Shown here one piece after another: positions 1 through 18,908 of a DNA stretch of 19,305 bases (position 1 is its first letter; each line of letters begins with the position of its first letter). The stretch covers positions 1 to 19,305 of the IMG/VR virus record IMGVR_UViG_3300029828_000038. One strand, written 5' to 3'. The position numbers were made by a program, and so were the translations under genes. Below the pieces are notes generated by a model that saw nothing but the letters and a program-made list of their open reading frames with translations, did no database searches and was not told where the DNA came from. This DNA comes from a virus. Taxonomy: Duplodnaviria; Heunggongvirae; Uroviricota; Caudoviricetes.

Positions 1-827
1 CCGGAAGTCTCTACCTGTTCTGTGGTCATCGCCTGGCATCTGATATCGAAATCATGATGCGTCAGCGCTTTAATGTGCTGAACCACATTATCTGGGCGAA
101 GCCGTCCGGACGCTGGAACGGATGCAACAAGGAAAGCCTGCGGGCGTATTTTCCGGCAACAGAACGCATTCTGTTTGCTGAACATTATCAGGGTCCATAC
201 CAGCCCAAAAATGACGGCTATGCGGCAAAGGGGCGCGAGCTAAAACAGCACGTCATGGCCCCGCTGATTTCTTACTTTCGTGATGCGCGTGAATCACTGG
301 GAATAACGTCAAAACAGATAGCGGAAGCCACCGGAAAGAAAAACATGGCTTCGCACTGGTTTGGTACCAGTCAGTGGCAGTTACCAAACGAGGGTGATTA
401 CAACAAATTGCAGGCGTTGTTTGCGCGTGTTGCGGCAGAAAAACATCAGCGCGGGGAACTGGAAAAGCCACACCACCAGCTGGTCAGCACATACAGTGAA
501 CTGAACCGGCAATATGCCAGCCTGCTGGAAGAGTACAAATCCCTGCGGCGTTATTTTTCCGTATCGGCAGCCGTTCCTTATACGGATGTCTGGACGCATA
601 AACCCGTGCAGTTTTATCCGGGCAAACATCCCTGTGAAAAACCGGCGGATATGCTCCGGCAAATAATCAATGCCAGCAGTCGCCCTGGTGATTTGGTTGC
701 TGATTTTTTTATGGGGTCTGGCTCAACAATAAAAGCGGCACTTTCACTGGGACGCCGTGCGATTGGCGTGGAACTGGAGGAAGAGAGATTTAATCAGACT
801 GTAAGTGAAATAAAAAATAATCGTTAA
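1..827 (+). CDS. DNA methyltransferase, N6-adenine/N4-cytosine (PF01555-like) family; 5' end lies outside the window
   Basis: Reading frame is open from window position 3 with no stop, through the track ORF 54..827. The protein carries HPCEKP (HPTQKP-like) followed by DLVADFFMGSGST (FxGxG AdoMet motif) and GRRAIGVELEE, the characteristic C-terminal half of this family. The DPPY-type motif would be upstream of the window. Confidence 0.75.
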   Translation, partial: GSLYLFCGHRLASDIEIMMRQRFNVLNHIIWAKPSGRWNGCNKESLRAYFPATERILFAEHYQGPYQPKNDGYAAKGRELKQHVMAPLISYFRDARESLGITSKQIAEATGKKNMASHWFGTSQWQLPNEGDYNKLQALFARVAAEKHQRGELEKPHHQLVSTYSELNRQYASLLEEYKSLRRYFSVSAAVPYTDVWTHKPVQFYPGKHPCEKPADMLRQIINASSRPGDLVADFFMGSGSTIKAALSLGRRAIGVELEEERFNQTVSEIKNNR

Positions 828-1426
828 ATACGGATAACATTATTTCTGAAATTAAGAAATAATAGAAATATATACATATGTTTACGAATATTAACGTGAA
901 TTTCCATTGAAAAGAGAACAGGCATCATTAGTATTAATTTGAGTTCCGAGGGTATACCCCGAAGAACCAGTGCCGACTTAGTTCAGCAATCAGAGCAGGT
1001 GGCTTGTAACATCAGGTCACCAGTTCGATTTCTCAGTCGGTACCGTATGCGGGTCGATTCCCGCTGTTCCAGAAGTAACGAGATAGGTAGTTTTGGGCGC
1101 TGGCACATTAAATATGTGGGATGTTTCACCCTCTCTCCTTACCGCATCCAGCCTGTAATGAAAGTTATTTGTTACGGTACCAGTGCCATCTTTTTACAAT
1201 AGCGGAATGGTGCATTATTGGTAGATATTTTGTATTTCATGGCAGGGTCGGTGATGCATCATTCCGGTGTTGTAAATAACACCGCCGGGGTGTTCCTCAG
1301 TGCGGGGGTGGTTCAAGAGTCGGTTTAGCGGGAAGCCACAGTATCCATACAGTATGGAGTACTTCGGGAGGCACCCGACGCCCTGGTTTTACTACAATAA
1401 AAATAACTTATCTTCTGCATTGACCA

Positions 1427-1452
1427 GCCGCCCCCACCGGGCGGTTTTTTTA
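1427..1452 (+). terminator. Intrinsic terminator-like hairpin plus T-tract
   Basis: Stem CCGCCC (1428-1433) / GGGCGG (1439-1444) with loop CCACC, followed by T7 (1445-1451). No coding sequence overlaps it. Confidence 0.55.
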
Positions 1453-1536
1453 TTCTGAATTCCCCAAAAAAAGAAAACACGGACACTGATAATGCCCGTG
1501 TGGCAATGCCATGTAAGTCAGCGATGAATATGGCGC

Positions 1537-1570
1537 AAAAAAAAAGCGCGGCTGTCGGATTAAAGCCGCG
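1537..1570 (-). terminator. Intrinsic terminator-like hairpin plus U-tract on the minus strand
   Basis: A9 at 1537-1545 on the + strand (U9 following the hairpin on the minus strand). Stem CGCGGCT (1547-1553) / AGCCGCG (1564-1570) with a 10-nt loop. Convergent with the + strand terminator at 1427..1452. Confidence 0.4.
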
Positions 1571-1829
1571 GGACAAAGTCCGTGAAGAAGAATAAGCATC
1601 GGTCTCCTCCAGGAGACGAGTTGATATTACTAAGCTTTAAAAATGGTTTAAATCCCCGTATTAACCTTAATTTCAGATAAGCTTTATTTCATTTCTTCGC
1701 GCCACGCCCGGCGCATATCAAAAAGCCACAGAGCCTTTCAGGGGTGAGCTTACGGGATGGTCAGTGTGACTTTCTCTGTGGGCTGGTCACCCCGGGGCGC
1801 AGGCTCACCCACTAAAAGGAAAAGTCACG

Positions 1830-2255
1830 ATGTTTGGTATTTTCAAAAAGAAAACCCGCAAGGCCATTACTGAAGTAAAGAAAATGGAGAACCGCGACGC
1901 AGTGGAGGCGACCGTCTGGGGTGCGTATTCCATCGCATTCGCCGACGACACCTGTGACGCGAAAGAAGTCGCGGTACTGGAGAAAACCATTGCAGCACTT
2001 CCTGCCTTTGCGCCGTTCTCCGGTGAGATTGCACAAATGAGTGCAAATATCCGCGCCCGTTATGAAGCGTCGCCGCGCTCTGCCAATGCTGAAGCCCTTC
2101 GTCAGCTGGCTGACGTGGCAGGTACTGATGACGCAGTTAATGTGCTGTGCCTGTGTCTGGATATCGCTGACCAGGATGGCATTGGTCCGGATGAAGAAGC
2201 ACAACTCAAGAAAATTGCTCAGGCACTGCAGTTGCCGCTGGAGCAGTACCTGTGA
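1830..2255 (+). CDS. TerB-like (tellurite-resistance TerB family) protein, phage cargo gene
   Basis: ATG at 1830 preceded by AAAGGAAAAG. The 141-aa product has the TerB-type acidic motif DIADQDGIGPDEEAQLKKIAQAL and predicted helical character. It sits between terminator-like hairpins, upstream of the lysis genes. Confidence 0.7.
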   Translation: MFGIFKKKTRKAITEVKKMENRDAVEATVWGAYSIAFADDTCDAKEVAVLEKTIAALPAFAPFSGEIAQMSANIRARYEASPRSANAEALRQLADVAGTDDAVNVLCLCLDIADQDGIGPDEEAQLKKIAQALQLPLEQYL

Positions 2256-2404
2256 AAAGTGCGCGCCTTGTGCTGGCTGCCATCCTGCTGTTTCTGGTAG
2301 TGGTGGTGGATTTCACCGGACGGCTGATGTCGGTGCTGGCAGATGGTGTGCTGGTGGCGATGGCGCTGGCCGTACTCCGGCCTTTACTGCGCAAATCTGA
2401 ATAA
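2252..2404 (+). CDS. Small hydrophobic two-helix membrane peptide (50 aa), translationally coupled to the TerB-like gene; not in the ORF track
   Basis: GTG at 2252-2254 overlaps the TerB stop TGA 2253-2255 (GTGA), with GGAG at 2240-2243 upstream. Hand translation: (M/V)KSARLVLAAILLFLVVVVDFTGRLMSVLADGVLVAMALAVLRPLLRKSE, stop TAA 2402-2404. Codons are CTG/GTG-rich. It falls below the apparent 60-aa cutoff of the track. Confidence 0.4.
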   Translation: MKSARLVLAAILLFLVVVVDFTGRLMSVLADGVLVAMALAVLRPLLRKSE

Positions 2405-2455
2405 CACCACACAAAAGGCATCTGCGGGTGCCTTTGACGGGGTGTTGTTTTTTAC

Positions 2456-2477
2456 GGGCCGCTGGTGGCCCTTTTTT
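2456..2477 (+). terminator. Intrinsic terminator-like hairpin plus T-tract upstream of the lysis genes
   Basis: Stem GGGCC (2456-2460) / GGCCC (2467-2471) with loop GCTGGT, then T6 (2472-2477). A second hairpin AGGCA/TGCCT lies at 2416-2433. Confidence 0.5.
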
Positions 2478-2495
2478 ATTTACAGGAGAAAAAGT

Positions 2496-2888
2496 ATGTC
2501 TGAACCCTTATCCGGTTCCGGCACGGCTGCGGCGCTCGGCGGGGCGACGGTATTCGGGCTGTTTACCGGAACGGATTTCGGGATTGTGTTTGGTGCGTTC
2601 GCCGGGGCGTTGTTTGTGGCAACGATGCCGCAGAAGATTTCAGCCTGGCGTGTGGCGGCACATTTTCTGGTGTCGTTCATTGTTGGTGTACTGGGGGCGC
2701 GTGTACTGTCAGCCTGGATTGCATCAAAAACAGGTTATGACGGTACATCTGCGGATGCACTGTGTGCGGTGCTGGTGGCGGTGGTGTCGGTGAAGATTCT
2801 GTCGTTCATCCACCAGCAGGATATCGCATCACTGGTGTCCGGCCTGTTCTCGCGCCTGCGGGGTGGAGGAGGCGGCAATGTTAAGTAA
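2496..2888 (+). CDS. Putative holin / lysis membrane protein (three predicted TM segments)
   Basis: ATG at 2496 preceded by ACAGGAGAAAAAG; this is the in-frame internal start of track ORF 2343..2888. The 130-aa product has three hydrophobic segments and a charged Gly-rich C-terminus, and lies immediately upstream of the endolysin. Confidence 0.55.
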   Translation: MSEPLSGSGTAAALGGATVFGLFTGTDFGIVFGAFAGALFVATMPQKISAWRVAAHFLVSFIVGVLGARVLSAWIASKTGYDGTSADALCAVLVAVVSVKILSFIHQQDIASLVSGLFSRLRGGGGGNVK

Positions 2889-3153
2889 CCTTCCCGGATT
2901 GCTGAATGTGGCGTTATGCACGGTTATCGTGCTGACGCTCTTTTTTTATCGTCGCCGTGATTCCAGACATAAACCGCTGATGTCATGGCTGGCCTGGCTA
3001 CTGATGCTGCTTTATGCCTTTGCACCACTCAGCTATCTGTGCGGTCGCCCGTTAGCGGCGAACTGGCTGGCGGTGGGGCTTAATCTGCTGTTCTGCGTGC
3101 TGGTGATACGTGCACGCGGGAACGTCACAAAAATCTTTCCAATGTTGAGGTGA
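2878..3153 (+). CDS. Second lysis-cassette membrane protein (holin/antiholin-like, about three TM segments)
   Basis: ATG at 2878 preceded by GGAGGAGG, overlapping the upstream gene by 11 nt. The 91-aa product is hydrophobic with basic loops (FFYRRRDSRHK). Its stop TGA 3151-3153 is 2 nt before the endolysin start. Confidence 0.5.
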   Translation: MLSNLPGLLNVALCTVIVLTLFFYRRRDSRHKPLMSWLAWLLMLLYAFAPLSYLCGRPLAANWLAVGLNLLFCVLVIRARGNVTKIFPMLR

Positions 3154-3155
3154 AT

Positions 3156-3533
3156 ATGTCGGGTAAATTCAGATTCAGCCGTCGCAGTGAAAAAAATCTG
3201 GAGGGCGTCAAACCACAGCTGGTTGCTGTCGTTCGCCGTGCGCTGGAGCTGACGGAGGTTGATTTCGGTATTACGGAAGGCCTGCGCAGTAAGTATCGCC
3301 AGAAACAGCTGGTTGCGGCAGGGAAAAGCCAGACCATGAACAGCCGCCACCTGACAGGTGATGCGGTGGATGTTGTGGCCTACATTGGCAGCCAGGTGTC
3401 ATGGGACTGGCCTCTGTACGAGAAAATAGCGCAGGCATTTAAGCAGGCTGCCGCAGAGCTGGGAACTACCATCGAATGGGGCGGTGAGTGGCGGTCCTTA
3501 AAGGACGGGCCTCACTTTCAGTTGAAACGCTGA
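3156..3533 (+). CDS. Endolysin, L-alanyl-D-glutamate peptidase (peptidase M15 / VanY-like, phage T5 Lys-like)
   Basis: ATG at 3156 with GAGGTG upstream. The 125-aa product has the T5-Lys-like pattern: KFRFS..SEKNL..VKPQL..RRALEL, the zinc-ligand motif SRHLTGDAVD, and C-terminal EWGGEW...DGPHFQL. Confidence 0.85.
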   Translation: MSGKFRFSRRSEKNLEGVKPQLVAVVRRALELTEVDFGITEGLRSKYRQKQLVAAGKSQTMNSRHLTGDAVDVVAYIGSQVSWDWPLYEKIAQAFKQAAAELGTTIEWGGEWRSLKDGPHFQLKR

Positions 3534-3547
3534 TAACCAGGTGTGTT

Positions 3548-3730
3548 ATGAGCAGAAAACACTGGACACACAGAATGCCGCGAACGGCGGCGAAATGGGC
3601 ACTGGTAGCGATACTGGTGCCTTTTTTATTGGTGGGATGCGTCAGCCTGGATAAGGCGCGCCAGCTTTTCGATACGGCTTCTCAGGTCTGCGAAATTGTT
3701 GACGGTGTTCGGCAGTGTCTGCAGAACTGA
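3548..3730 (+). CDS. Small outer-membrane lipoprotein, lysis-associated (spanin-like position)
   Basis: ATG at 3548 with AGGTG upstream. Signal peptide with basic n-region, hydrophobic core and lipobox LVGC. The mature part is 30 aa (CVSLDKARQLFDTASQVCEIVDGVRQCLQN), with Val at +2 and three Cys. It starts 14 nt after the endolysin stop. Confidence 0.6.
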   Translation: MSRKHWTHRMPRTAAKWALVAILVPFLLVGCVSLDKARQLFDTASQVCEIVDGVRQCLQN

Positions 3731-3901
3731 TCGCCCGTAAGAGCAGAATATTTTGCTGAAAAATGAAGGATGCGTCAGCGCCCGGAAAGCATGAAATTCT
3801 GTGTTTGCGGTCATTCAATAAAATAAATTCTTTCTTTCGCCGCGAATACTCAAATGTTGATCAGCGCCAGGTGCGGCGACGGGCTTCGATATCAGGAGAC
3901 G

Positions 3902-4180
3902 ATGATGGGAAAAACAGAAAACAAACCGATTTTAGTTGGTGTCGCGTCTATTCCGTTTAAGTTTGAACTGTCACAACTGGTGGAAGTATGCATCAGTGAT
4001 GAATGGGGTGAGGTTAAAGCTCGCGCTCAGTATGCAGATGGCGAAAACCAGTACTTGCTCCACTACAAAGCTGCTGATGGTCGTGCCACGACGGAGTGGT
4101 TTGGTGAATCAATGCTGGAAGCAACAGAAGATGCTCGTCATCCGGGCTGTCCGGTATTTGCCTTCATGAAATTACCGTAA
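3902..4180 (+). CDS. Hypothetical protein (92 aa, soluble), candidate cargo gene
   Basis: ATG at 3902 preceded by TCAGGAGACG. No TM segment or recognisable motif. It is preceded by a 170-bp AT-rich spacer and followed by the palindrome GTTACTGAGTAAC (4190-4202) and the hairpin GCAGCCC/GGGCTGC (4213-4235). Confidence 0.5.
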   Translation: MMGKTENKPILVGVASIPFKFELSQLVEVCISDEWGEVKARAQYADGENQYLLHYKAADGRATTEWFGESMLEATEDARHPGCPVFAFMKLP

Positions 4181-4262
4181 GGTGCGGTAGTTACTGAGTA
4201 ACAGGCATTACAGCAGCCCTTCAGTGAGGGGCTGCGATAATGCCGGTATTAAGGAGATTCCA

Positions 4263-4613
4263 ATGCCATCACGAATCCCCCGCGCATGCCGTAAGCGAGG
4301 TTGCGCAGGCACGACAACAGACAGCTCTGGCTACTGCGATAAACATCGGGGTGAAGGCTGGGTGCAGCACCAGCGCGGACTGAGCCGCCACCAGCGTGGC
4401 TATGGCTCAAAATGGACGGTGATTCGAGCCCGTATTCTGAAGCGCGATAAAGGTCTGTGTCAGTTGTGTCTGCGTGTCGGTGTGGTGCGCGAGGCGAAAA
4501 CTGTCGACCACATCATCCCGAAAGCACATGGCGGAACAGATGCAGACAGCAACCTGCAGAGTCTGTGCTGGCCCTGCCACAAAGCGAAAACAGCGCGCGA
4601 ACGAATCAGGTGA
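4263..4613 (+). CDS. HNH endonuclease (packaging-associated, HK97 gp74-like position)
   Basis: ATG at 4263 with AAGGAG upstream. The product has Cys-rich zinc-finger-like CRKRGCAG...CDKH and the HNH core DHIIPKAHGG...N...CWPCHKAKT. It lies directly upstream of the terminase small subunit. Confidence 0.85.
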   Translation: MPSRIPRACRKRGCAGTTTDSSGYCDKHRGEGWVQHQRGLSRHQRGYGSKWTVIRARILKRDKGLCQLCLRVGVVREAKTVDHIIPKAHGGTDADSNLQSLCWPCHKAKTARERIR

Positions 4614-4760
4614 TAATTATTCTCACTTGTGGGGAGGGGCGGGTAAAATCCCTGCAGCCCTGGCTGCTCAGTACCGCCGCCTGACCTTTCCTCGCATCGC
4701 CGCAGGTTCGAAAACTTTTTTTTGGGAATGCGATCAAACGATTGATAGGTAAAACCGATT
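4614..4760. other. Candidate cos / packaging-initiation region between HNH endonuclease and terminase small subunit
   Basis: A 147-bp non-coding gap with G-rich GGGGAGGGGCGGG, the hairpin GCAGC-CCTG-GCTGC, the GC block CCGCCGCCTGACC and a T9 run. The position matches the cos site of HK97-like phages. The exact cut site cannot be determined. Confidence 0.3.
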
Positions 4761-5243
4761 ATGTCAGGACCCCCGAAAACCCCGCCACGCCTGCATTTGA
4801 TACGAGGCAACCCATCAAAGCGCCCCGTTAAAGACCCCAAAAAAACCGCTAAAAAGGACGAAAAAGGTCTCCCTAAAATTCCGCAACATTTAGGGGCGCA
4901 GGGGAAGTACTGGTTCAGGCGAATGGCGGAAGAACTGAATGCGGAAGGGATCATTTCTCAGCTTGATGCGCGTGCACTCGAGTTGCTGGTGGAAGCCTAC
5001 ACCGAATACCGGCATCACTGCGAAATACTCGATGTTGAGGGTTATACCTACCGCACGGAAACGCAGAACGGTGATGTGCTGATTAAGGCACACCCGGCTG
5101 CTGCGATGAAAGCGGATGCCTGGAAGCGGATCCGGGCGATGCTTGCAGAGTTTGGTATGTCACCGGCAAGCCGGGCGAAAGTAAATACCGCCGGACCGGA
5201 TGATGTTGATCCGCTGGCGGAACTTTTAAAAGCGAGAGACTGA
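4761..5243 (+). CDS. Terminase small subunit, P27 family
   Basis: 160-aa product with a basic N-terminus (PKTPPRLHLIRGNPSKRP...) and the P27-family core YWFRRMAEEL...LDARALELLVEAY...HPAAAMKADAWKRIRAMLAEFGMSPASRAK. Its stop overlaps the large-subunit start (TGATG). Confidence 0.85.
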   Translation: MSGPPKTPPRLHLIRGNPSKRPVKDPKKTAKKDEKGLPKIPQHLGAQGKYWFRRMAEELNAEGIISQLDARALELLVEAYTEYRHHCEILDVEGYTYRTETQNGDVLIKAHPAAAMKADAWKRIRAMLAEFGMSPASRAKVNTAGPDDVDPLAELLKARD

Positions 5244-7000
5244 TGGCAAAAGTGGCTGACGGGATCCGCTACGCCGAACGTGTTGTTGCAGGAGAAATTG
5301 TCGCTGGCGAATTTGTCCGTCTGGCCTGCCAGCGTTTTCTTGATGATCTGAAGTACGGCGAAGAGCGGGGGATTTATTTCAGTGAACCCCGTGCGCAGCA
5401 CATCCTGAATTTCTACAAATTTGTGCCCCATGTAAAAGGGGCGCTGGCAGGCCAGCCCATTGAACTGATGGACTGGCATGTATTTATTCTCATTAATATT
5501 TTTGGTTTTGTCATTCCGCTGGTCAATGAAGAGACCAGGGAAGTTGTTATGCGCAGCGATGGCAGCGGACGTCCGGTGATGGTGCGCCGGTTCCGGACGG
5601 CGTACAACGAAGTCGCCCGTAAAAACGCAAAATCAACCCTGTCATCGGGTATCGGTCTGTATATGACGGGGGCAGATGGTGAAGGCGGGGCTGAGGTGTA
5701 TTCAGCCGCAACCACGCGTGACCAGGCCAGAATCGTGTTTGAAGACGCCAAAAATATGGTCAGAAAAGCCCGGTCGACACTCGGGCGATTGTTTGATTTC
5801 AACAAGCTGGCGATTTACCAGGAGCAGAGCGCATCAAAATTTGAACCGCTTTCTTCGGATGCAAACAACCTGGATGGTCTGAACATCCACTGCGCCATTA
5901 TTGATGAGCTGCATGCACATAAAACCCGCGACGTGTGGGACGTTCTGGAAACGGCAACTGGTGCCCGTCTGCAGTCCCTGTTATTTGGTATCACCACGGC
6001 TGGCTTTAACAAGGAAGGGATTTGTTACGAGCAACGCGATTACGCCATCAAGGTATTGCGTGGCTATAACAGTGACGTGGAGGGCGCGGTAAAAGACGAC
6101 TCTTACTTTGCGATCATTTACACGCTCGATGAGGGAGATGATCCGTTTGATGAAACGGTCTGGCAGAAAGCGAATCCCGGCCTGGGCATCTGTAAACGCT
6201 GGGATGATTTGCGTCGTCTGGCGAAAAAAGCGAAGGAGCAGGTTTCTGCGCGGGTGAATTTTTTCACGAAACACATGAATGTGTGGGTCACTGCCGAATC
6301 TGCCTGGATGGACATGATTAAGTGGGAGAAGTGCGAATACATTGCTCCACAGCATGAGCTGAAAACATATCCCATGTGGGTCGGTGTAGACCTTGCTCAT
6401 AAGATTGATATCTGTGCGGCGGCAAAACTCTGGCGAACCGATAACGGACATGTTCATGCTGATTTTAAATTCTGGCTCCCGGAAGGACGGCTGGAGCGGT
6501 GCTCGCGGCAGCAGGCAGAACTTTACCGGAAATGGGCGGAGATGGATAAGCTCATCCTGACGGATGGTGATGTTATCGATCATGCTCAGATAAAAAGTGA
6601 CTTACTGGAATGGATTGGTGGTGAAAACCTGAGGGAGCTGGGATTTGACCCGTGGAGTGCAATGCAGTTCAGTCTGGCTCTGGCTGAAGAAGGGATACCG
6701 CTGGTGGAAGTTCCGCAGACGGTCCGCAATCTGTCAGAGGCTATGAAGGAAACGGAATCACTGGTCTATGCCGGGCGTTTTCACCACAGCAATCACCCGG
6801 TCATGAACTGGATGATGTCTAACGTTACGGTAAAACCGGACAAAAACGACAATATCTTCCCGAACAAATCCACGCCTGAAGCCAAAATCGACGGTCCTGT
6901 TGCGATGTTTACAGCAATGAGCCGGATGCTGGTCAATGGCGGTGAACCGGAGCCGGATCTGTCTGAGCATCTGGTCAGCGTTGGTATTCGCTCGCTTTAA
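5243..7000 (+). CDS. Terminase large subunit (Terminase_1-like)
   Basis: 585 aa, size and position typical. ATPase-like N-terminal region and nuclease-like C-terminal region by pattern. Coupled to the small subunit. Confidence 0.9.
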
Positions 7001-7011
7001 CCGAGGGCATT

Positions 7012-7194
7012 ATGTTTCTGATAATTCTCACGCCACTGGTGGGCGTGCTGGGGGCGCTTTTGCTGGCGTATGGCGCCTGGCTGATTTATCCCCCGGCAGG
7101 TTTTGTTGTTGCCGGGGCGCTGTGTCTGTGCTGGTCGTGGCTGGTTGCGCGTTATCTCGATCGCGGTCACCGGGTCGCCTCTGGAGGTGAGTAA
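7012..7194 (+). CDS. Small two-helix membrane protein (60 aa) between terminase and portal
   Basis: ATG at 7012, 11 nt after the terL stop, with GAGGG upstream. Product [60 protein letters not shown] has two hydrophobic helices and a charged tail. Its stop TAA overlaps the portal ATG (TAATG). Confidence 0.5.
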
Positions 7195-8435
7195 TGTTTT
7201 TCCAGGGGCTTTTTCAACGCAAAAATAACACCCCCGTCACAACGCCCGGGATGCTTGCGGAAGAGCTGGGGTTGTCATACGACACCTATACCGGAAAGCG
7301 GATCAGCAGCCAGCGGGCCATGCGGCTGACGGCGGTCTATTCCTGCGTCAGGGTGCTGGCTGAGTCTGTTGGTATGCTGCCCTGCAGTCTCTACAAAATC
7401 AGCGGCACCCTTAAAACACGGGCGGTGGATGAACGGCTGCATAAGCTGATTTCGGCAAAACCCAATGGCTACATGACGCCGCAGGAATTCTGGGAACTGG
7501 TTATCGTCTGCCTGTGTCTGCGGGGTAATTTTTACGCCTACAAGGTAAAGGCACTGGGGGAAGTGGTGGAGCTTCTTCCGATAGATCCGGGCTGTGTGGA
7601 ACCGAAGCTGAACAGCCAGTGGCAGCCGGTTTATCAGGTGACGTTTCCGGATGGTTCCGTGGATGTGCTGACCCAGAATGAAATCTGGCATGTGCGTACC
7701 CTGACGCTGGATGGACTTGTCGGTCTGAATCCCATTGCATATGCGCGCGAGGCCATTTCACTGGCAGCGGCAACCGAGGAGCATGGTGCCAGATTGTTTG
7801 GCAATGGCGCGGTAACATCCGGTGTGTTGCGTACGGATCAACAACTTTCTGACCAGGCTTATGCGCGTATCAAAAAGGATTTTGAGGAACGGCATGTCGG
7901 GCTGGGAAACTCTCATCGTCCGATGATTCTGGAAATGGGGCTGGACTGGAAAACGGTGGCACTGAATGCCGAGGACAGCCAGTTCCTGGAAACCCGCAAG
8001 TTTCAGCTGGAAGAAATCTGTCGCCTGTTCCGCGTGCCGCTGCATATGGTGCAGAACACCGATCGCGCCACCTTCAACAATATTGAAGAGCTGGGGCTTG
8101 GTTTCATTAACTATTCCCTTGTGCCGTATCTGACCCGTATTGAGCAGCGGATCAATACAGGGCTGGTCAGGGAGAGCAAGCAGGGAAAATTTTACGCCAA
8201 GTTTAATGCCGGAGCATTGTTGCGTGGCGACATGAAATCCCGCTTTGAAGCGTATGCCACGGGGATCAACTGGGGGATTTATTCCCCTAATGACTGCCGT
8301 GATCTGGAAGATATGAATCCCCGACCGGGCGGTGATGTGTATCTGACACCGATGAACATGACCACCAGTCCCTCTGCTGGCGATGACAACGGTAAGAAAA
8401 AGGAGAGTGGAGATGCAGACAAAACAGCGTCTTGA
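7194..8435 (+). CDS. Portal protein, HK97 family
   Basis: 413 aa, immediately downstream of terminase and upstream of the prohead protease. Sequence pattern typical of Phage_portal family. Confidence 0.9.
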   Translation: MFFQGLFQRKNNTPVTTPGMLAEELGLSYDTYTGKRISSQRAMRLTAVYSCVRVLAESVGMLPCSLYKISGTLKTRAVDERLHKLISAKPNGYMTPQEFWELVIVCLCLRGNFYAYKVKALGEVVELLPIDPGCVEPKLNSQWQPVYQVTFPDGSVDVLTQNEIWHVRTLTLDGLVGLNPIAYAREAISLAAATEEHGARLFGNGAVTSGVLRTDQQLSDQAYARIKKDFEERHVGLGNSHRPMILEMGLDWKTVALNAEDSQFLETRKFQLEEICRLFRVPLHMVQNTDRATFNNIEELGLGFINYSLVPYLTRIEQRINTGLVRESKQGKFYAKFNAGALLRGDMKSRFEAYATGINWGIYSPNDCRDLEDMNPRPGGDVYLTPMNMTTSPSAGDDNGKKKESGDADKTAS

Positions 8436-9063
8436 TATACCGCTGAACCTGAAATCCGTCAGTGATTCCGGGGAATTTGAAGGTTACGGTTCTGTTTTTG
8501 GTGTTAAGGACAGCCACGATGATGTGGTGGTCCCCGGAGCCTTTACCACAACACTCCAGAAATGGAGCGAAAAAAAGGCGCTGCCTGCGTTGCTCTGGCA
8601 GCACCGCATGGATGAGCCCATCGGTGTGTACACCGAAATGAAAGAAGATGATGTCGGGCTTTATGTCAGGGGACGATTACTCATTGATGATGATCCCCTG
8701 GCAAAACGTGCACATGCCCATATGAAGGCCGGTTCTTTAACCGGCCTTTCTATTGGCTACATCCTGAAAGACTGGGAGTACGACCGGGAAAAAGGGGTAT
8801 TCCTGCTGAAAGAGATCGACCTGTGGGAGGTCAGTCTGGTGACGTTTCCTTCCAATGATGAAGCACGCATCAGCGATGTGAAAAATGCGCTGGCGCGTGG
8901 GGAGATCCCTGATCAGAAAATTATTGAGCGGGTCCTGCGCGATGTTGGACTCTCGCGAACCCAGGCCAAAGCATTCATGGCCGGGGGATATGGCGCTTTA
9001 TCCCTGCGTGATGCTGAGGATGTGGATGCCGCACTGAATGCACTGAAAAATCTTAAATTTTAA
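8413..9063 (+). CDS. Prohead protease, HK97 family (peptidase S78/U35)
   Basis: ATG at 8413 with AAGGAGAGTGGAG upstream. Chosen over the track start 8383, which has no RBS. Conserved region GYGSVFGVKDSHDDVVVPGAF and position between portal and capsid. Confidence 0.85.
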   Translation: MQTKQRLDIPLNLKSVSDSGEFEGYGSVFGVKDSHDDVVVPGAFTTTLQKWSEKKALPALLWQHRMDEPIGVYTEMKEDDVGLYVRGRLLIDDDPLAKRAHAHMKAGSLTGLSIGYILKDWEYDREKGVFLLKEIDLWEVSLVTFPSNDEARISDVKNALARGEIPDQKIIERVLRDVGLSRTQAKAFMAGGYGALSLRDAEDVDAALNALKNLKF

Positions 9064-9076
9064 TCAGGAGTAAATA

Positions 9077-10303
9077 ATGGCTGTTGATATTAAAGACGTT
9101 GAACAGGTCGCGCAGGATTTGCAGCAGAAGTTTGACGATTTTAAGGCAAAAAACGACAAGCGCATTGACGCGATCGAACAGGAAAAAGGCAAGCTGGCCG
9201 AACAGGTGGAAAGCCTGAACGGGCAAATCAGCGAGCTGGAGAACCTGAAAAGCGACCTGGAAAAAGAGCTGGCAGACATCAAGCGTCCGGCAGGCGGCAC
9301 GCAAAATAAAGTTGCCGGTGAACACAAAGAAGCGTTTATCGGATTTATGCGCAAGGGGCGTGAAGACGGTCTGCGTGAACTTGAACGTAAGGCGCTTCAG
9401 GTAGGTAATGATGAAGATGGTGGTTATGCCATTCCGGAAGAACTGGATCGTACCATCCTGACGCTACTGAAAGATGAGGTGGTGATGCGCCAGGAAGCCA
9501 CTGTGATCACCCTCGGTGGCTCGGATTATAAAAAACTGGTGAATCTGGGCGGCACAACGTCCGGATGGGTGGGGGAAACGGATGCTCGTCCGGAAACCGC
9601 CACCTCAAAACTGGGTCTGATTGAACCCTTTATGGGGGAAATCTACGGCAACCCGCAGGCCACCCAGAAAATGCTCGATGATGCTTTCTTCAATGTGGAA
9701 GACTGGATCAACAGTGAGCTGGCGCTGGAATTTGCCGAGCAGGAAGAAATTGCCTTTACCAGTGGCGACGGCAGCAAAAAACCAAAAGGTTTTCTGGCTT
9801 ACGAGTCCACCGATGAAGATGACAAGACCCGTGCGTTTGGCAAACTTCAGCACATTGCTTCCGGTGCGGCTTCCGGCGTGACTGCCGATGCGATCATTAA
9901 ACTGATTTACACCCTGCGCAAGGCGCACCGCAGCGGCGCGAAGTTTATGATGAACAACAGCAGCCTGTTTGCCATTCGTCTGCTGAAGGATAACGACGGA
10001 AATTATCTGTGGCGTCCGGGTATTGAGCTGGGTCAGCCTTCTTCTCTGGCAGGGTATGGCATCGTTGAGAATGAACAGATGCCGGATATTGCTGCCGATG
10101 CAAAAGCCATTGCGTTTGGTAACTTCAAACGTGGCTATACCATCGTTGATCGCATCGGTACCCGTATCCTGCGCGATCCGTACACCAATAAACCGTTTGT
10201 GGGTTTTTACACCACCAAGCGAACCGGCGGTATGCTGGTGGATTCTCAGGCGATTAAGCTGATGAAAATTGGGGCCGCAACCCGCCAGAAAGCCGCTGCG
10301 TAA
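9077..10303 (+). CDS. Major capsid protein, HK97 family, with N-terminal coiled-coil delta (scaffold) domain
   Basis: ATG at 9077 with AGGAG upstream. 408 aa. The N-terminal ~100 aa is a coiled-coil (KFDDFKAKNDKRIDAIEQEKGKLAEQVESLNGQISELENLKSDLEKELADIK), followed by a capsid-fold region. Confidence 0.9.
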   Translation: MAVDIKDVEQVAQDLQQKFDDFKAKNDKRIDAIEQEKGKLAEQVESLNGQISELENLKSDLEKELADIKRPAGGTQNKVAGEHKEAFIGFMRKGREDGLRELERKALQVGNDEDGGYAIPEELDRTILTLLKDEVVMRQEATVITLGGSDYKKLVNLGGTTSGWVGETDARPETATSKLGLIEPFMGEIYGNPQATQKMLDDAFFNVEDWINSELALEFAEQEEIAFTSGDGSKKPKGFLAYESTDEDDKTRAFGKLQHIASGAASGVTADAIIKLIYTLRKAHRSGAKFMMNNSSLFAIRLLKDNDGNYLWRPGIELGQPSSLAGYGIVENEQMPDIAADAKAIAFGNFKRGYTIVDRIGTRILRDPYTNKPFVGFYTTKRTGGMLVDSQAIKLMKIGAATRQKAAA

Positions 10304-10336
10304 TGCGGTTTTTTATGCCCGCACAGTGTTGCGGGC
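10293..10336 (+). terminator. Structured intercistronic element after the major capsid gene (weak terminator-like hairpin plus a second strong hairpin)
   Basis: CCGC (10293-10296) / GCGG (10305-10308) followed by T6 (10309-10314), then the perfect hairpin GCCCGCA (10317-10323) / TGCGGGC (10330-10336) directly before the RBS of the next gene. Confidence 0.3.
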
Positions 10337-10347
10337 AGGAGTTTCTG

Positions 10348-10665
10348 ATGGCAGCAATAGTGGAAAAACTCAGGGCGCAGTGCCGTATTGATACAGATGA
10401 TGCAACTGATGATGAGTTACTGATGCTGTATTTCCGGGCTGCCTGCCGCAAGGCAGAAAATTTTATCAACCGTAAGCTTTATGAGGAGACGGTGCCGGAA
10501 GGTGATCCTGACGGGGTGCTTATAGCTGATGATGTTTTGCTGGCGCTCATGTTGCTGGTCGGACACTGGTACGAAAACCGGGAAAATTCCTCAGATGTCA
10601 GCAAGGCACCAGTTCCGTTTGGTTTTTCTTCTCTGCTGGAGCCTTATCGTTTTATTCCTTTGTAG
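10348..10665 (+). CDS. Head-tail adaptor / connector protein (gp6-like, Phage_connect_1)
   Basis: ATG at 10348 with GGGCAGGAG upstream. Chosen over the track start 10303, which would read through the hairpins. Motif MAAIVEKLRAQCRIDTDDATDDELL typical of this family. Confidence 0.8.
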   Translation: MAAIVEKLRAQCRIDTDDATDDELLMLYFRAACRKAENFINRKLYEETVPEGDPDGVLIADDVLLALMLLVGHWYENRENSSDVSKAPVPFGFSSLLEPYRFIPL

Positions 10666-10673
10666 GAGGAACC

Positions 10674-11012
10674 ATGCAGGCGGGCAGATTACGTGATCGC
10701 GTAACTATTCTGAATGTCACCACCGTCCGTTCTCCGTCAGGGCATCCGGTGGAGACAATGACGGAGGGGGCAACCGTATGGGCAGAAGTTAAGGGGATCA
10801 GCGGGAGGGAGAGAATATCAGGAGGTGCAGAAACCGCTCAGGCTACGGTCAGAGTCTGGATGCGATTTCGGCGCGATGTGACAGCGACTTCACGTCTGAA
10901 AGTGCTGACCGGTGCATTTAAAGGGGTCACTCTTGGTATAGAAGGGCCACCAATACCGGATGCACGCGCCACCCGGCTTGAAATGCTCTGCAGTCTGAAG
11001 GGGAATGTGTGA
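10674..11012 (+). CDS. Head closure protein (Phage_H_T_join, SPP1 gp16-like)
   Basis: ATG at 10674 with GGAGGA upstream. 112 aa with pattern RDRVTI...VWAEVKGISGRE. Position after the adaptor. Confidence 0.8.
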   Translation: MQAGRLRDRVTILNVTTVRSPSGHPVETMTEGATVWAEVKGISGRERISGGAETAQATVRVWMRFRRDVTATSRLKVLTGAFKGVTLGIEGPPIPDARATRLEMLCSLKGNV

Positions 11013-11458
11013 TGGATTTCAGTCTTGATTTTTCAGGTCTGGCGGATATTGCACGGGATCTGGAGACGCTCAGCAGGGCAGAAAACAATAAGGTTCTGCG
11101 CGATGCCACCCGTGCCGGTGCTGAAGTTATGCGGGATGCAGTTGTTGAACGTGCGCCGGAGCGAACCGGGAAACTGAAGAAAAATGTGGTTGTTCTCACG
11201 CAGCGTTCAAAGCGTCGGGGGGAAATTATCTCGGGTGTCCACATTCGCGGACGGAACCTGCGAACCGGAAACAGTGATAACAGCATGAAAGCCAGCGATC
11301 CCCGAAATGCGTTTTACTGGCGCTTTGTGGAGCTGGGAACGATAAACATGCCCGCGCATCCGTTCATTCGCCCGGCTTTCGATACGACAGAGGAACTGGC
11401 AGCACAGATTGCCATACAGCGAATGAATCAGGCTATTGATGAGGTCTTAAGTAAATGA
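11012..11458 (+). CDS. HK97 gp10-family protein (neck / tail-completion)
   Basis: ATG at 11012 overlapping the upstream stop (TGATG); the track begins 3 nt earlier at GTG 11009. Motif VVERAPERTGKLKKN and ...HPFIRPAF typical of the family. Confidence 0.8.
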   Translation: MDFSLDFSGLADIARDLETLSRAENNKVLRDATRAGAEVMRDAVVERAPERTGKLKKNVVVLTQRSKRRGEIISGVHIRGRNLRTGNSDNSMKASDPRNAFYWRFVELGTINMPAHPFIRPAFDTTEELAAQIAIQRMNQAIDEVLSK

Positions 11459-11799
11459 GGGAAGCCACACTGTATTCCCTGCTGTCTCAACTGGCCGGAG
11501 GACAGGTTTATCCTTATGTGGTCCCGCTGACGGAGGGAAAGCCTGCGGTATCTCCGCCGTGGCTGGTGTTTTCTGTGGTGTCTGACACGGCGTCTGATGT
11601 GCTTGATGGTCAGGCTGAATCCAGAATTACCGTGCAGATCGATGTCTGGGCAACAGTACCTGATGACGCAGATGATATCCGTGAGCAGGCGCTTGATGCG
11701 GTAAGGCAACTTGCACCCTCCGTTATTTCTAAAACTCAGGGTTATGATCCTGATTCCCGTCTGAGCAGAGCCACGCTTGAATTTCAGGTAATAGCCTGA
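11455..11799 (+). CDS. Tail terminator-like protein (DUF3168-like, lambda gpU position)
   Basis: ATG at 11455 overlapping the upstream stop (ATGA). 114 aa. Position directly upstream of the major tail protein. Confidence 0.7.
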   Translation: MREATLYSLLSQLAGGQVYPYVVPLTEGKPAVSPPWLVFSVVSDTASDVLDGQAESRITVQIDVWATVPDDADDIREQALDAVRQLAPSVISKTQGYDPDSRLSRATLEFQVIA

Positions 11800-11820
11800 G
11801 GTCGTTAATGATTTTACCCA

Positions 11821-11846
11821 CCCGCCGCTGGCGGGTTTTTTATTTT
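11821..11846 (+). terminator. Terminator-like hairpin plus T-tract between tail terminator and major tail genes
   Basis: Stem CCCGCC / GGCGGG with loop GCT (11821-11835), followed by TTTTTTATTTT. Immediately upstream of the RBS CAGGAGACG of the major tail gene. Confidence 0.45.
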
Positions 11847-11858
11847 CAGGAGACGAGT

Positions 11859-12563
11859 ATGTCCTCTAATTTTGAGCGTTCGCAACTGACGAAAATTATG
11901 ATTTCGTCTGCACCGGTAACAGCAGAAACCCTGGATTCTGCCAGCTATCTTGGCCTGAGCTGTACAATCAAAGAGGTGCAGTTTACCGCAGGACAAAAGC
12001 AGGATATTGATGTCACCACGCTGTGTTCTGTTGAGCAGGAAAATATTAACGGCCTTGGTGCCGCGTCAGAGATTTCCATGTCAGGCAACTTTTACCTCAA
12101 TGCTGCCCAGAACGCGTTGCGCAGTGCCTATGACAATGACACCACGTATGGCTTTAAAGTTATTTTTCCGTCAGGCAACGGATTTACCTTTATGGCAGAG
12201 GTGCGTCAGCATACCTGGTCTGCAGGAACTAATGGTGTTGTGGCTGCAACGTTTTCCCTGCGCCTGAAAGGTAAACCTGTGCTGACGACAGAGCCGCTGA
12301 AAGTGAAGGTCGATTTAAACAGCACGCTGCAGGTTTCTGCCGGAGCGAAACTCGAAATGGTGGTTGAGGCTGCCGGTGGTGTGCCGCCTTATTCTTATGT
12401 CTGGAAGAAAGGTAGTTCTCCTGTTTCCGGACAGACGGCGGCAACATTCAGTAAGGCATCAGCAGCATCAGGTGATGCCGGTGCGTATACCTGCGAGATT
12501 TCTGATTCAGCAAGCCCTGTTAACAAGGTGACCTCCACTTCCTGCACTGTTACCGTCAGTTAA
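11859..12563 (+). CDS. Major tail (tube) protein with C-terminal Ig-like (Big_2-type) domain
   Basis: ATG at 11859 with AGGAGACGAG upstream; the track start 11808 would read through the hairpin. The C-terminal ~90 aa has the Ig-like signature (...PPYSYVWKKG...AGAYTCEISDSAS...TVTVS). Confidence 0.85.
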   Translation: MSSNFERSQLTKIMISSAPVTAETLDSASYLGLSCTIKEVQFTAGQKQDIDVTTLCSVEQENINGLGAASEISMSGNFYLNAAQNALRSAYDNDTTYGFKVIFPSGNGFTFMAEVRQHTWSAGTNGVVAATFSLRLKGKPVLTTEPLKVKVDLNSTLQVSAGAKLEMVVEAAGGVPPYSYVWKKGSSPVSGQTAATFSKASAASGDAGAYTCEISDSASPVNKVTSTSCTVTVS

Positions 12564-12577
12564 TGAGGATAGATGTG

Positions 12578-12949
12578 ATGACTAAAAATATCCGCAATCT
12601 GGCACTGGCAACGATGTCGGGGTTTCGCCATAAAACTGTTGATGTGCCTGAATGGGAAGGGGCAACGGTTGTATTACGGGAACCTTCTGCAGAAGCCTGG
12701 TTGCGCTGGCAGGAGATCGTTAAAGCAAAAGATGATGAGACACCGTTATCCGTTGCGGAGCGCGCCCGCCGAAATCTGGAGGCAGATGTTGAACTGTTCA
12801 TTGATGTTCTGTGTGATACCGGACTGCAACCTGTATTTTCAGAGGATGATCGTGAACAGGTGATTGCCGTGTATGGCCCGGTGCATGCGCGGCTTCTTCG
12901 GCAGTCTCTGGAACTGATCAGTGATGCCGGCGAGGTTAAAAAAAAGTAG
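12578..12949 (+). CDS. Tail assembly chaperone (lambda gpG equivalent)
   Basis: ATG at 12578 with GAGGATAGATGTG upstream; the alternative start is ATG 12563, coupled as TAATG. The ORF ends ...GEVKKK then TAG 12947-12949, immediately after the slippery heptamer. Confidence 0.75.
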   Translation: MTKNIRNLALATMSGFRHKTVDVPEWEGATVVLREPSAEAWLRWQEIVKAKDDETPLSVAERARRNLEADVELFIDVLCDTGLQPVFSEDDREQVIAVYGPVHARLLRQSLELISDAGEVKKK

Positions 12950-13251
12950 AGCTTCCGGGGATGCGTTTTCTGATGATGCTGGCGCTCAGGATGGGGCGCA
13001 CATTGTCAGAGTTACGCCGGGAAATGTCCGCATCAGAAATCATGATGTGGGCAGAATTTGACAGGTACAGCCCGCTGGGTGACGAGCGGGCTGATATCCG
13101 GGCTGCCCAGATAGTTTCTGCGGTTTACGGTGCGCAGGGTGTCAAAGTCCCACTGAATGATGCGCTTCTTCAGTGGGAACAAGAGCAGACAGAAGGCGTC
13201 TCAGATCCATTTGCCGGACTGGAAAACGCGCTTTTAATAGTGTCTCAGTGA
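12578..13251 (+). CDS. Tail assembly chaperone frameshift fusion product (lambda gpGT equivalent), made by a -1 shift at 12940-12946
   Basis: Frame relationship verified by hand: G is in frame 2 and the downstream ORF (track 12961..13251) is in frame 1. The fusion would read ...GEVKKK-VELPGMRFLMML... to the stop at 13249-13251. Position between major tail and tape measure matches the conserved G/GT arrangement. Confidence 0.6.
12940..12946 (+). other. Slippery heptamer A AAA AAG for -1 programmed ribosomal frameshift (G to GT)
   Basis: In the G frame the codons are AAA (12941) AAG (12944) TAG (12947). The -1 frame has a stop at 12937-12939 and is open from 12940 (AAA AAA GTA GAG CTT CCG GGG ATG...) into the downstream ORF ending 13251. 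Confidence 0.65.
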
Positions 13252-13260
13252 GTCAACATA

Positions 13261-13280
13261 ACCGCTTCGGCGGTTTTTTT
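13261..13280 (+). terminator. Terminator-like hairpin (UUCG tetraloop) plus T-tract upstream of the tape measure gene
   Basis: ACCGC-TTCG-GCGGT (13261-13274) followed by T7, then the RBS GGAGA and ATG 13291. Confidence 0.45.
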
Positions 13281-13290
13281 CGTCCGGAGA

Positions 13291-16200: not shown

Positions 16201-16524
16201 AGTGCTTACAGTAACACTATTGTGGATACACCGACGTATTTTGCTTTTGCGAAAGGTGCCGGGCTGATGGGTGAGGCCGGGCCTGAAGCTATCATGCCAC
16301 TGACACGGGCAGCGGACGGCTCTCTTGGGGTCAGAGCCATTGGCAATGTGAATGGTGGCGGTGGATTTGTTTATTCTCCCGTGTATCACATCAGCATTCA
16401 GAATCAAGGGAGCAATGGCGAGATAGATACGCGCTCAGCCAGGGGACTGGTGGATCTGATCGACAGCAGGGTTGTGTCAATTATGCAGTCATCGCGTCGG
16501 GATGGAGGATTATACAGTGCCTGA
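13291..16524 (+). CDS. Tail tape measure protein (1077 aa)
   Basis: Very long Ala/Gln-rich helical protein downstream of the G/GT chaperone. C-terminal region resembles lambda gpH (…WADSATDYASQ…, …RRDGGLYSA). Confidence 0.9.
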   Translation: MSVATLRELIIKISANSRSFQSEISRASRMGQDYYRTMQNGGRQSAAASREMRRALAEVTDQINTAKSSALNMAGAFAGAFATGHLISLADEWNSVNARLKQASQSSDDFQVSQRELMAISQRTGTAFSDNASLFARSAASMREYGYSSEEVLKVTEAISTGLKLSGASTAEASSVITQFSQALAQGVLRGEEFNSVNENGDRVIRALAAGMGVARKDLKAMADNGKLTADKVVPALISQLGALRDEYAAMPDTVSSSATKVENAFMAWVGGANEASGVTKTLTGVLNGVADNIDTVAAAAGALVAVGVARYFGNMASSAGSATAGLITAARNEVALAEAQLRGTQIATARARAAVYRAQQAVVAARGTERQAAAEAKLTAAQASLTRNIAARTAAQTTLNTVTSVGSRLLSGALGLVGGVPGLVMLGATAWYTMYQNQEQARESARQYAATIDEIRQKTSAMSLPEASDNEEKTRQALDEQNRLIDEQKSKIKSLQEKIAGYQYVLANPGWTTDNGFMINHMTSVKTVTEGLAEATNQLAVEQSRLTQMQGKAQSIQDVLAGLEERRVALIRQQAAEQNKAYQSLLIMNGQHTEFNRLLGLGNELLQQRQGLVNVPLRLPQATLDDKQQTALNNSERELALSRLKGEARERARLGYAADDLGFVGEAYQTARQNYINNSLDAWRNNQANKPKAHKKTEAEKTEDIYKRLIKQQKEQIALAGQNTELAKMKYQVSQGELSTLSEAQKKTLLQNAALIDQKKIREQLAAYESSLADSNASARASDDAQLLGYGEGSRMRERLQEMWSIRQTFEQKNNELLRQYQAGEIEEALWKQEKELNKKYLEERLSDQQDYYAKADALRNNWNAGLQEGLTNWADSATDYASQAADAVVSTMDGLVSNISDALAGNVVEWRNWGSSVLREVSKILMNAAIVNGLKSLSGAGGWLGTVGGWISGAVANAKGGVYTSANLSAYSNTIVDTPTYFAFAKGAGLMGEAGPEAIMPLTRAADGSLGVRAIGNVNGGGGFVYSPVYHISIQNQGSNGEIDTRSARGLVDLIDSRVVSIMQSSRRDGGLYSA

Positions 16525-16858
16525 GCCTGAAGTTTTTAACTGGATCCCCCGTGAGGGGATGGAGACGACACGAAAGCCATCAGTTATTACGGTAAAGTTT
16601 GGTGACGGATATGAACAGCGACGGGCTGGTGGTCTGAATGCGGATCTGAAAACGTTTAAACCGGTATTTCGTGTCACAGATGAATACTCCCGTGCCGCGC
16701 TGGACAGTTTTTTATCCCGTCATGCCGGGATTCGTGCTTTTTTGTGGCGTCCGCCAAAACACAACAGGACTGTCCGGGTTGTCTGCAGGGAGTGGAGCAT
16801 TTCGGATAATGCCATGTATACCGATTTTAACTGTACCTTTGAAGAGGTCACTCACTGA
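16517..16858 (+). CDS. M: Minor tail protein M (lambda gpM-like)
   Basis: GTG at 16517 with GGAGGA 7 nt upstream; the alternative start is ATG 16502. The product contains ...VKFGDGYEQRRAGGLNADLKTFKPVFRV...FLWRPP..., matching the lambda M signature. Its stop overlaps the L start (ATGA). Confidence 0.8.
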   Translation: MPEPEVFNWIPREGMETTRKPSVITVKFGDGYEQRRAGGLNADLKTFKPVFRVTDEYSRAALDSFLSRHAGIRAFLWRPPKHNRTVRVVCREWSISDNAMYTDFNCTFEEVTH

Positions 16859-17556: not shown

Positions 17557-17560
17557 TCCC

Positions 17561-18849: not shown

Positions 18850-18869
18850 TGAAAAACGTTTTATGTGAA

Positions 18870-18888
18870 ACCGCCCCCGGGCGGTTTT
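18870..18888 (+). terminator. Weak terminator-like hairpin between I and J
   Basis: ACCGCC-CCCG-GGCGGT (18870-18885) followed by only TTTT, so a weak terminator at best. Confidence 0.3.
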
Positions 18889-18908
18889 GTCGTTATGGAG
18901 CGTGAGAA

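Follow-up and report, generated by a model that had tools for sequence, protein, structure and literature searches.

A cassette on the minus strand of IMGVR_UViG_3300029828_000038, a lambda-like prophage record of IMG/VR, is probably a self-contained small RNA (sRNA) gene, and its sequence suggests expression in the lysogen and base pairing in trans as the most likely mode of action. The analysed stretch (positions 1 to 19,305 of the record, 19,305 nucleotides (nt)) is hereafter called the window, and the cassette extends from a promoter at position 1652 to a terminator that ends at position 1537. An earlier note on this DNA had suggested that the minus strand gives rise to a transcript of its own, about 80 nt long, which could be a prophage sRNA or an antisense regulator. 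This proposal gains support from our analysis. It is backed by a promoter conserved among relatives, by covariation in both hairpins, by a strand bias of G·U pairs, by the antisense position of the cassette in most prophage loci and by a paralog with a mapped 3' end, and an independent small transcript is in our judgement quite likely. The transcription start, expression of the window copy, its dependence on a chaperone and its targets are inferred. The cassette is very probably the first described representative of its sequence family, and it belongs to a well-known kind of prophage element.

Read along the minus strand, the cassette opens with a -35 hexamer, TTTAAA (1652-1647), which is separated by a 17-nt spacer (1646-1630) from the -10 hexamer TAATAT (1629-1624). 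The sigma-70-type promoter would direct initiation at about G1617, 7 nt past the -10 hexamer, and yield an RNA of about 81 nt that ends at an intrinsic terminator. G1617 is also the first base of a perfect 5' hairpin, GTCTCC-TGGA-GGAGAC (GUCUCC-UGGA-GGAGAC in the RNA, 1617-1602). The hairpin is followed by a C/U-rich, single-stranded linker of 20 nt, CGAUGCUUAUUCUUCUUCAC (1582..1601), which is a candidate seed, and by a mini-hairpin GGAC-UUU-GUCC (1571..1581) abutting the terminator on its 5' side. The terminator (1570-1537) has a stem CGCGGCU/AGCCGCG (1570-1547) of 7 bp, six of the seven being G-C, with a 10-nt loop, and its tail consists of C1546 and nine T (U9 in the RNA, 1545-1537). Upstream of the -35 hexamer lies a conserved A/T-rich block, AAATTAAGGTTAAT (1660..1673, minus strand), which may be an UP-element-like or a regulator site.

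The earlier note had placed the hexamers and their spacing, the 5' hairpin and the terminator with its U9 tail exactly as we find them, and it overlooked a 49-residue open reading frame (ORF), a back-up terminator and a convergent match to the STnc100 family. It had also called the promoter match weak, and with 8/12 consensus positions this match is indeed at chance level taken alone; its support comes from the comparison with relatives, in which hexamers and spacing are conserved. Our consensus scan called neither the promoter nor the first terminator of the cassette, the former because its 8/12 falls under the cut-off of 9/12 and the latter because its 10-nt loop is over the limit of 8 nt.

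The 81-nt RNA (1617-1537) is predicted to fold at -23.5 kcal/mol (z = -2.46), and 4 of 200 shuffled sequences fold as well. The fold contains, in order, the 5' hairpin, 20 unpaired nt, the mini-hairpin and the terminator, and most tested variants share it. The linker is unpaired in the minimum-energy fold, whereas in the centroid fold some of its bases pair with GGAGGAGA. The back-up terminator, ACACGGGCA-UUAUCAG-UGUCCGUGU, was found by the terminator scan on the same strand, 35 nt past the first one (stem 1501-1477; 1467..1501 with its U-rich tail). It is conserved in window-type relatives, and its pairing is retained in the variants GGGCA/UGUCC, GGACA/UGUCC and GGG/CCC. Read-through of the first terminator, if it occurs, would produce an isoform of about 150 nt; the 148-nt sequence through the back-up terminator folds with z = -3.36.

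Conservation of the cassette and its K-12 paralog

Members of the cassette family were gathered by a scan for the exact 24-nt pattern GGACTTTGTCCCGCGGNNTTAATC, which gave at least 128 copies in 45 distinct 110-nt versions from Escherichia/Shigella genomes and IMG/VR contigs. The pattern is present in at least 119 IMG/VR viral contigs. In species-representative genomes it occurs in Escherichia and Shigella only, bar one contig of a metagenome-assembled genome (MAG) labelled as Bacillota. This contig (JAEWTL010000060.1, 'MAG: Bacillota bacterium') is 6 kb long and carries a core-type copy with 71.2 bits, the same as in K-12; it is probably an Escherichia contaminant in a metagenome bin. A distant BLAST search with positions 1440-1830 found copies of about 80% identity in other E. 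coli prophages, for example at a locus that we call L003, together with a 46-nt match spanning the terminator in 5358 of 5426 E. coli genomes, which in K-12 falls between yodB and serU. By megablast, window-type copies are present in 91 and L003-type copies in 224 of the 5426 complete E. coli genomes; the two sets overlap, and these prophage copies amount to at most about 6% of the genomes. E. coli strains CM2010-0578/1, SC407 and E423 have close copies. Among the copies listed, none is annotated as an RNA gene or non-coding RNA.

Three versions aligned by eye have the entire cassette in common, from the upstream A/T-rich block through the T run, in the order A/T-rich block, TTTAAA, 17 nt, -10 hexamer, hairpin 7 nt further on, linker, GGACTTTGTCC, terminator and T run. 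In part of the family the tail is weaker (CUACUUUU), and a second terminator module comes after it. In L003-type relatives a second GGAC(U/G)UUGUCCC-plus-terminator module occupies the position of the back-up terminator, and the mini-hairpin motif thereby reappears before a different terminator stem. The weak-tail variants with their second module, together with the back-up terminator of the window, allow for a longer isoform.

Promoter conservation was measured over 67 prophage-type versions. The -35 hexamer has a mean majority fraction of 0.998, with five of six positions invariant. The -10 hexamer has a majority fraction of 0.92; its positions 1, 2, 5 and 6 are near-invariant, with TAGAAT as one exception, and its variation in prophage copies is mostly A/G at position 3, as in the variant TAGTAT. 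Both hexamers are the most conserved parts outside the search pattern, compared with 0.85 for the 5' hairpin and 0.76 for the six bases between the -10 hexamer and +1. All prophage versions that were read have a spacer of 17 nt, as does the core copy of K-12, and the A/T-rich block upstream is near-invariant in the same 67 versions.

The RNA structure is conserved together with the promoter. In the three-helix structure 96.4% of the cells are paired, in comparison with 40-54% when the partners are slid by 1-3 columns, and the 5' hairpin alone is paired in 96% of cells. Five pairs have changes on both sides: three of them are among the six pairs of the 5' hairpin, and the other two are the top pairs of the terminator stem. 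The covariation score was reached by none of 500 shuffles. The 5' hairpin occurs as GUCUCC/GGAGAC, GUCCCC/GGGGGC, UCUCUC/GAGAGA and CUCC/GGAG, with GCUUU/AAAGC in the core copy, while the top pairs of the terminator covary between GGCU/AGCC and GGUC/GACC (CU/AG versus UC/GA). RNAalifold, run independently, recovers the same three helices. Thus the covariation across homologous prophages, which the earlier note had named as a check on its proposal, is observed in both hairpins with the pairing kept.

The strand can be assigned from the same alignment. The paired columns contain 23 G·U cells and 4 A·C cells, and therefore the pairing has been kept for the minus-strand RNA and not for its complement. 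In agreement with this direction, U tracts trail both hairpins on the minus strand alone. In contrast to the fixed 3' module, the linker varies in a few discrete versions, namely CGAUGCUUAUUCUUCUUCAC in the window, CCAAUACUUAUUAUUCUUCAU, AGAUACUUAUGAUUCUUCAU, a divergent one at another prophage locus (L042) and a CA-rich one in the core copy; the CUUCAY at its 3' end is conserved in prophage copies.

A paralog of the cassette is located in the core chromosome between yodB and serU in nearly all of the 5426 E. coli genomes. In MG1655 it extends over about 2,043,040-2,043,182 of NC_000913.3 on the plus strand, with the -10 hexamer TATGAT at 2,043,082-87 and a U tract that ends at 2,043,182; the NC_000913.3 annotation has nothing between yodB and serU, and a full-text literature search found no name for this paralog. 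The paralog has the identical -35 hexamer TTTAAA, the same layout of -35, 17-nt spacer and -10, a 5' hairpin 7 nt past the -10 hexamer, the same GGACUUUGUCC motif and the same terminator, and the A/T-rich block is discernible as AAATACAGGTTAAT. The family covariance model gives 71 bits on it and 103.7 bits on the window. The two differ in that the paralog belongs to the core chromosome and not to a prophage, has another 5' hairpin and a CA-rich linker (UUCAACAACUC), and ends with a shorter U tract.

Term-seq data of K-12 (Adams et al. 2021, PMC7815308, supplementary file 1) contain an 'orphan' 3' end at 2043181(+), that is, one assigned to no annotated gene, in two of three condition lists, with the printed flank AATTATGGACTTTGTCCCGCGGCTTTAATCTGACGGCCGCGTTCCTTTTTT. 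This position coincides with the terminator of the paralog, so the family terminator works in vivo on the predicted strand. The near-universal, unnamed paralog is the most notable by-product of our analysis, and it gives an easy experimental entry in the best-studied bacterium. The pair of paralog and prophage cassette is also a concrete case in which to study how sRNA genes may move between phage and host chromosomes.

Mode of action and alternative explanations

With its 5' stem-loop, C/U-rich single strand, small hairpin, GC-rich terminator and U tail, the predicted RNA is built like the usual chaperone-dependent base-pairing sRNA. We propose that the lysogen makes this RNA from its own promoter, that the 5' stem-loop would be protective and that the C/U-rich stretch would pair with purine-rich sites on mRNAs or on other sRNAs; the linker is thus the presumed seed. 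Pairing in trans is most likely by analogy with AgvB and AsxR, for which it is known, and with PasA and PasC, for which it has been proposed; all four sit at comparable positions. Since the linker exists in discrete variants next to a fixed 3' module, as in AgvB, AsxR and EcOnc03, a trans-acting sRNA is favoured. A cis-antisense effect is also possible because the late transcript is perfectly complementary to the cassette RNA and could pair with it after induction, and the two modes are not exclusive. We put the chances that the RNA acts mainly in trans at about even. A further idea, tentative and rather doubtful at present, is that prophage and core copies form one family with a common 3' chaperone-binding module (GGACUUUGUCC plus terminator) and swapped seeds. 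If true, prophage copies could interfere with the regulon of the core copy, by re-wiring it or by competition, or they could sponge core sRNAs in the manner of AgvB and AsxR; on induction the late transcript would titrate the cassette RNA.

Several observations weigh against an sRNA gene acting in trans. Each promoter hexamer has only 4/6 consensus matches. The family members are closely related, with an effective sequence number of 1.79, and because of this the covariation amounts to a handful of independent changes. The exact 24-nt pattern used for gathering members forces invariance in the mini-hairpin and in the 5' arm of the terminator, and the mini-hairpin is invariant across copies for this reason. 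The minimum-energy fold of the core paralog departs from the family architecture. The K-12 3' end lies 283 nt past the yodB stop codon and could instead be the end of a long yodB 3' untranslated region. The paralog is likely none of the eight core-genome sites in the Hfq cross-linking (Hfq-CRAC) list of enterohaemorrhagic E. coli (EHEC), a comparison that relies on the Sp14/Sp15 site coordinates, the position of the paralog in Sakai not having been located; neither yodB nor serU appears in the Hfq-CLASH supplements searched (Iosub 2020). As evidence against Hfq binding, both results are weak. Finally, a duplex scan of the linker against both strands of the window gave no trans target above the shuffled background: the best non-self duplex has -17.9 kcal/mol on the plus strand and -19.4 kcal/mol on the minus strand, and shuffled linkers reach a mean of -20.2 kcal/mol on the plus strand.

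In one alternative, the main role of the cassette would be to control the late operon in cis, through an antisense RNA or as a transcriptional roadblock. Its RNA, or head-on transcription, would then pair or collide with late or read-through transcripts between the moron and the TerB/lysis genes, and RNase III cleavage or interference would damp leaky expression of lysis genes in the lysogen; once the phage is induced, the late transcript, being abundant, could in turn titrate the sRNA. Lambda OOP and P22 Sar are precedents for such a role. This explanation fits the perfect complementarity between the RNA and the plus strand (the linker by itself gives -32.7 kcal/mol) as well as the position of the cassette, which is always between moron and lysis module. 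At 106 of 115 prophage loci, moreover, the long ORFs within 3.5 kb are on the opposite strand, so that the cassette is antisense to its neighbouring operon. We nevertheless consider it unlikely. The core paralog keeps the architecture without a late operon opposite, the combination of discrete linker variants and a fixed 3' module is the pattern of trans-acting seed diversification, and upstream plus-strand transcripts in the lysogen should already end at a strong plus-strand terminator at 1426-1446.

It is improbable that there is no gene at all. In that case the hairpins would do no more than serve as terminators or insulators where two mosaic modules meet, or would be structures of the late RNA read from the plus strand, and the hexamers would be a product of chance in AT-rich DNA. 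The low match of each hexamer, without a promoter call by the consensus scan, would agree with this, and a fold just as good is predicted for the complementary RNA of the plus strand (-25.3 kcal/mol, z = -2.71). In addition, homology with many E. coli prophages starts exactly at the plus-strand terminator, which therefore marks a module junction. Yet conservation is higher in the hexamers and their 17-nt spacing than in the 5' part of the transcript, and the core paralog has kept both hexamers and spacing. Read from the plus strand, the G·U pairs would turn into A·C mismatches (23 versus 4), and it is only on the minus strand that U tracts trail the stems. An sRNA gene is defined by just such a combination, a conserved promoter with tandem terminators about 50-80 nt downstream. 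If the RNA is not expressed, the locus would be a conserved module junction with terminators.

The least probable explanation, to which we give hardly any weight, is a small hydrophobic protein, such as a type I toxin-like peptide, whose ribosome-binding site would be masked by the 5' hairpin. The earlier note had seen no credible ORF here, which does not hold as stated: a minus-strand ORF of 49 amino acids (aa), MLILLHGLCPAAL..., is present at 1599-1450, with a hydrophobic N-terminus and a strong Shine-Dalgarno-like GGAGGAG 4 nt before its ATG at 1599, although it is not conserved. The codon at this position is ATG in only 27 of the 128 copies, ATA in 84 and ACA in 16. The ATG-bearing copies have ORFs of 23-71 aa with unrelated C-termini; lengths and tails differ because the length of the T run shifts the frame. 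The strong terminator sits within the 49-aa ORF. This ORF and a further minus-strand ORF of 83 aa were rejected as coding sequences, being not conserved and without a Pfam match. The sRNA gene stays our preferred explanation of the cassette.

Genomic setting

The window comes from a lambda-like Escherichia prophage, of which it represents the late region, and has 97% identity over 98% of its length to E. coli CM2010-0578/1. The cassette is placed between moron and lysis module, in the 'moron' region, which has Q/PR' on one side and the lysis genes on the other. Downstream of it on the plus strand are a TerB-family gene (1830-2255, PF05099) and then DUF3927, holin, terminase, head and tail genes; all of them are plus-strand genes, and the cassette therefore has an antisense orientation relative to the late operon. 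The leader that precedes the TerB-family gene (1700-1830, plus strand) and the TerB/TciA genes themselves are jointly conserved in phages of E. coli and Klebsiella. This leader has the interleaved complementary segments CCACAGAG/CTCTGTGG, GGGTGAGC/GCTCACCC and GGTCAG/CTGGTCACC, and its fold energy is unremarkable (1700-1835, plus strand, z = -1.15). On the minus strand, the pair CCACAGAG/CTCTGTGG followed by CTTTTTG looks like another terminator.

On the other side of the cassette, a region at 1259-1455 on the plus strand matches STnc100/PasD (RF02076) over the full length of the model. The match is sub-threshold: it scores 21.7 bits where the gathering score is 47, and its E value is 0.006 for a search of 241 nt. 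The plus-strand terminator at 1426-1446, which was found by the terminator scan, lies at its end. The STnc100-like region converges on the cassette and is conserved in L003, and if the match is real, the locus would be a convergent pair of small transcription units. A hairpin CGGGAGGCACCCG is found in this region, and a related sequence, GGGTGCCTCCCG (printed as the minus strand), adjoins AgvB1 in the Sakai prophage Sp10.

Further upstream, a DNA methyltransferase gene is found at 54-827 on the plus strand (PF01555). Of the 221 positions in the Pfam N6_N4_Mtase profile, its ORF covers only 71-219. The ORF encodes 257 aa, compared with 1047-nt genes (about 348 aa) in related prophages; it may be 5'-truncated or have a different start. 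Decayed genes for tRNA-Thr and tRNA-Gly follow at 972-1075 on the plus strand. The tRNA-Thr copy carries substitutions and 1-nt deletions, was not called by ARAGORN and scores 19.1 bits with the Rfam tRNA model, whose gathering score is 29, and the tRNA-Gly copy is shorter by about 48 internal nt than the intact genes in related prophages (L002 and L003). A tRNA/tmRNA scan of the window found none. About 750 nt without genes separate the tRNA remnants from the TerB-family gene.

Comparison with known prophage sRNAs

In the region from Q to the lysis genes, prophages encode sRNAs that are known to re-programme regulation in the host: AgvB acts as a block on GcvB, AsxR makes FnrS less stable, and for the Pas sRNAs there are numerous Hfq-bound partners. 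The cassette appears to be a further, unannotated sRNA family in this Q-to-lysis region. At the gathering threshold, a search with the 4227 models of Rfam 15 gave no match in the window. At E values up to 10 with positions 1400-1850 as query, 1532-1638 is covered only by chance-level matches to unrelated families (L20_leader, anti-hemB and suhB), and the K-12 paralog likewise gave chance-level matches only. By the Rfam models, the cassette is thus no member of AgvB (RF02702), AsxR (RF02703), Esr41 (RF02676) or STnc100 (RF02076). We also tried two identities directly. AgvB was rejected, the AgvB1 sequence looking unrelated by eye and the family model being without a match in the AgvB1 locus or in the whole 50-kb prophage Sp10 of Sakai. 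PasA (NC_011601, 743499-743415) and PasC (NC_011601, 1290909-1290832) were rejected as well; the sequences are unrelated by eye, and the family model gave no match at E values up to 1 in the two loci (L005 and L006).

AgvB (EcOnc01) and AsxR (EcOnc02) were described as prophage 'anti-sRNAs' of EHEC O157, where convergent sRNA pairs occupy the moron site 3' of PR', and AgvB, AsxR and EcOnc03 combine a fixed 3' part with a variable 5' part (Tree et al. 2014, PMC4104026). Like these, the cassette lies downstream of Q/PR' in the moron region and antisense to the late operon, is short, and has its own promoter and an intrinsic terminator. It also converges on a plus-strand sRNA-like region with a terminator, an arrangement comparable to that which we read at the Sakai Sp10 locus. 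On the other hand, AgvB and AsxR measure 51-60 nt compared with about 81 nt here, match the cassette neither in sequence nor in structure, and expose a CA-rich single strand in place of a C/U-rich one, while the cassette RNA opens with a stem-loop.

The sRNAs PasA and PasC of the enteropathogenic E. coli strain E2348/69 are stabilised by Hfq and have 79-85 nt (Pearl Mizrahi et al. 2021, PMC8550237; Zhu, Shabalina & Storz 2026 preprint, 10.64898/2026.05.13.724894). Their genes resemble the cassette in lying on the strand opposite the late genes and directly upstream of the lysis genes, in having a TerB-family gene among the conserved neighbours and in the frequent presence of STnc100/PasD-type RNAs nearby. 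PasA has a longer minor isoform, and the tandem terminators of the cassette would allow for the same. A difference is that the Pas sRNAs are reported to be absent from K-12, whereas the cassette family has a paralog there. STnc100 (RF02076)/PasD shares the prophage neighbourhood, and the STnc100-like match in the window is the opposite-strand neighbour of the cassette, not the cassette itself. Taken together, the cassette shows the features of the positional class of PasA/PasC and AgvB/AsxR, namely a location in the region from Q/PR' to the lysis genes, an antisense orientation, a promoter, a terminator and a convergent STnc100-like neighbour, and it has one feature of Hfq-dependent sRNAs, a Rho-independent terminator with a long 3' U tail.

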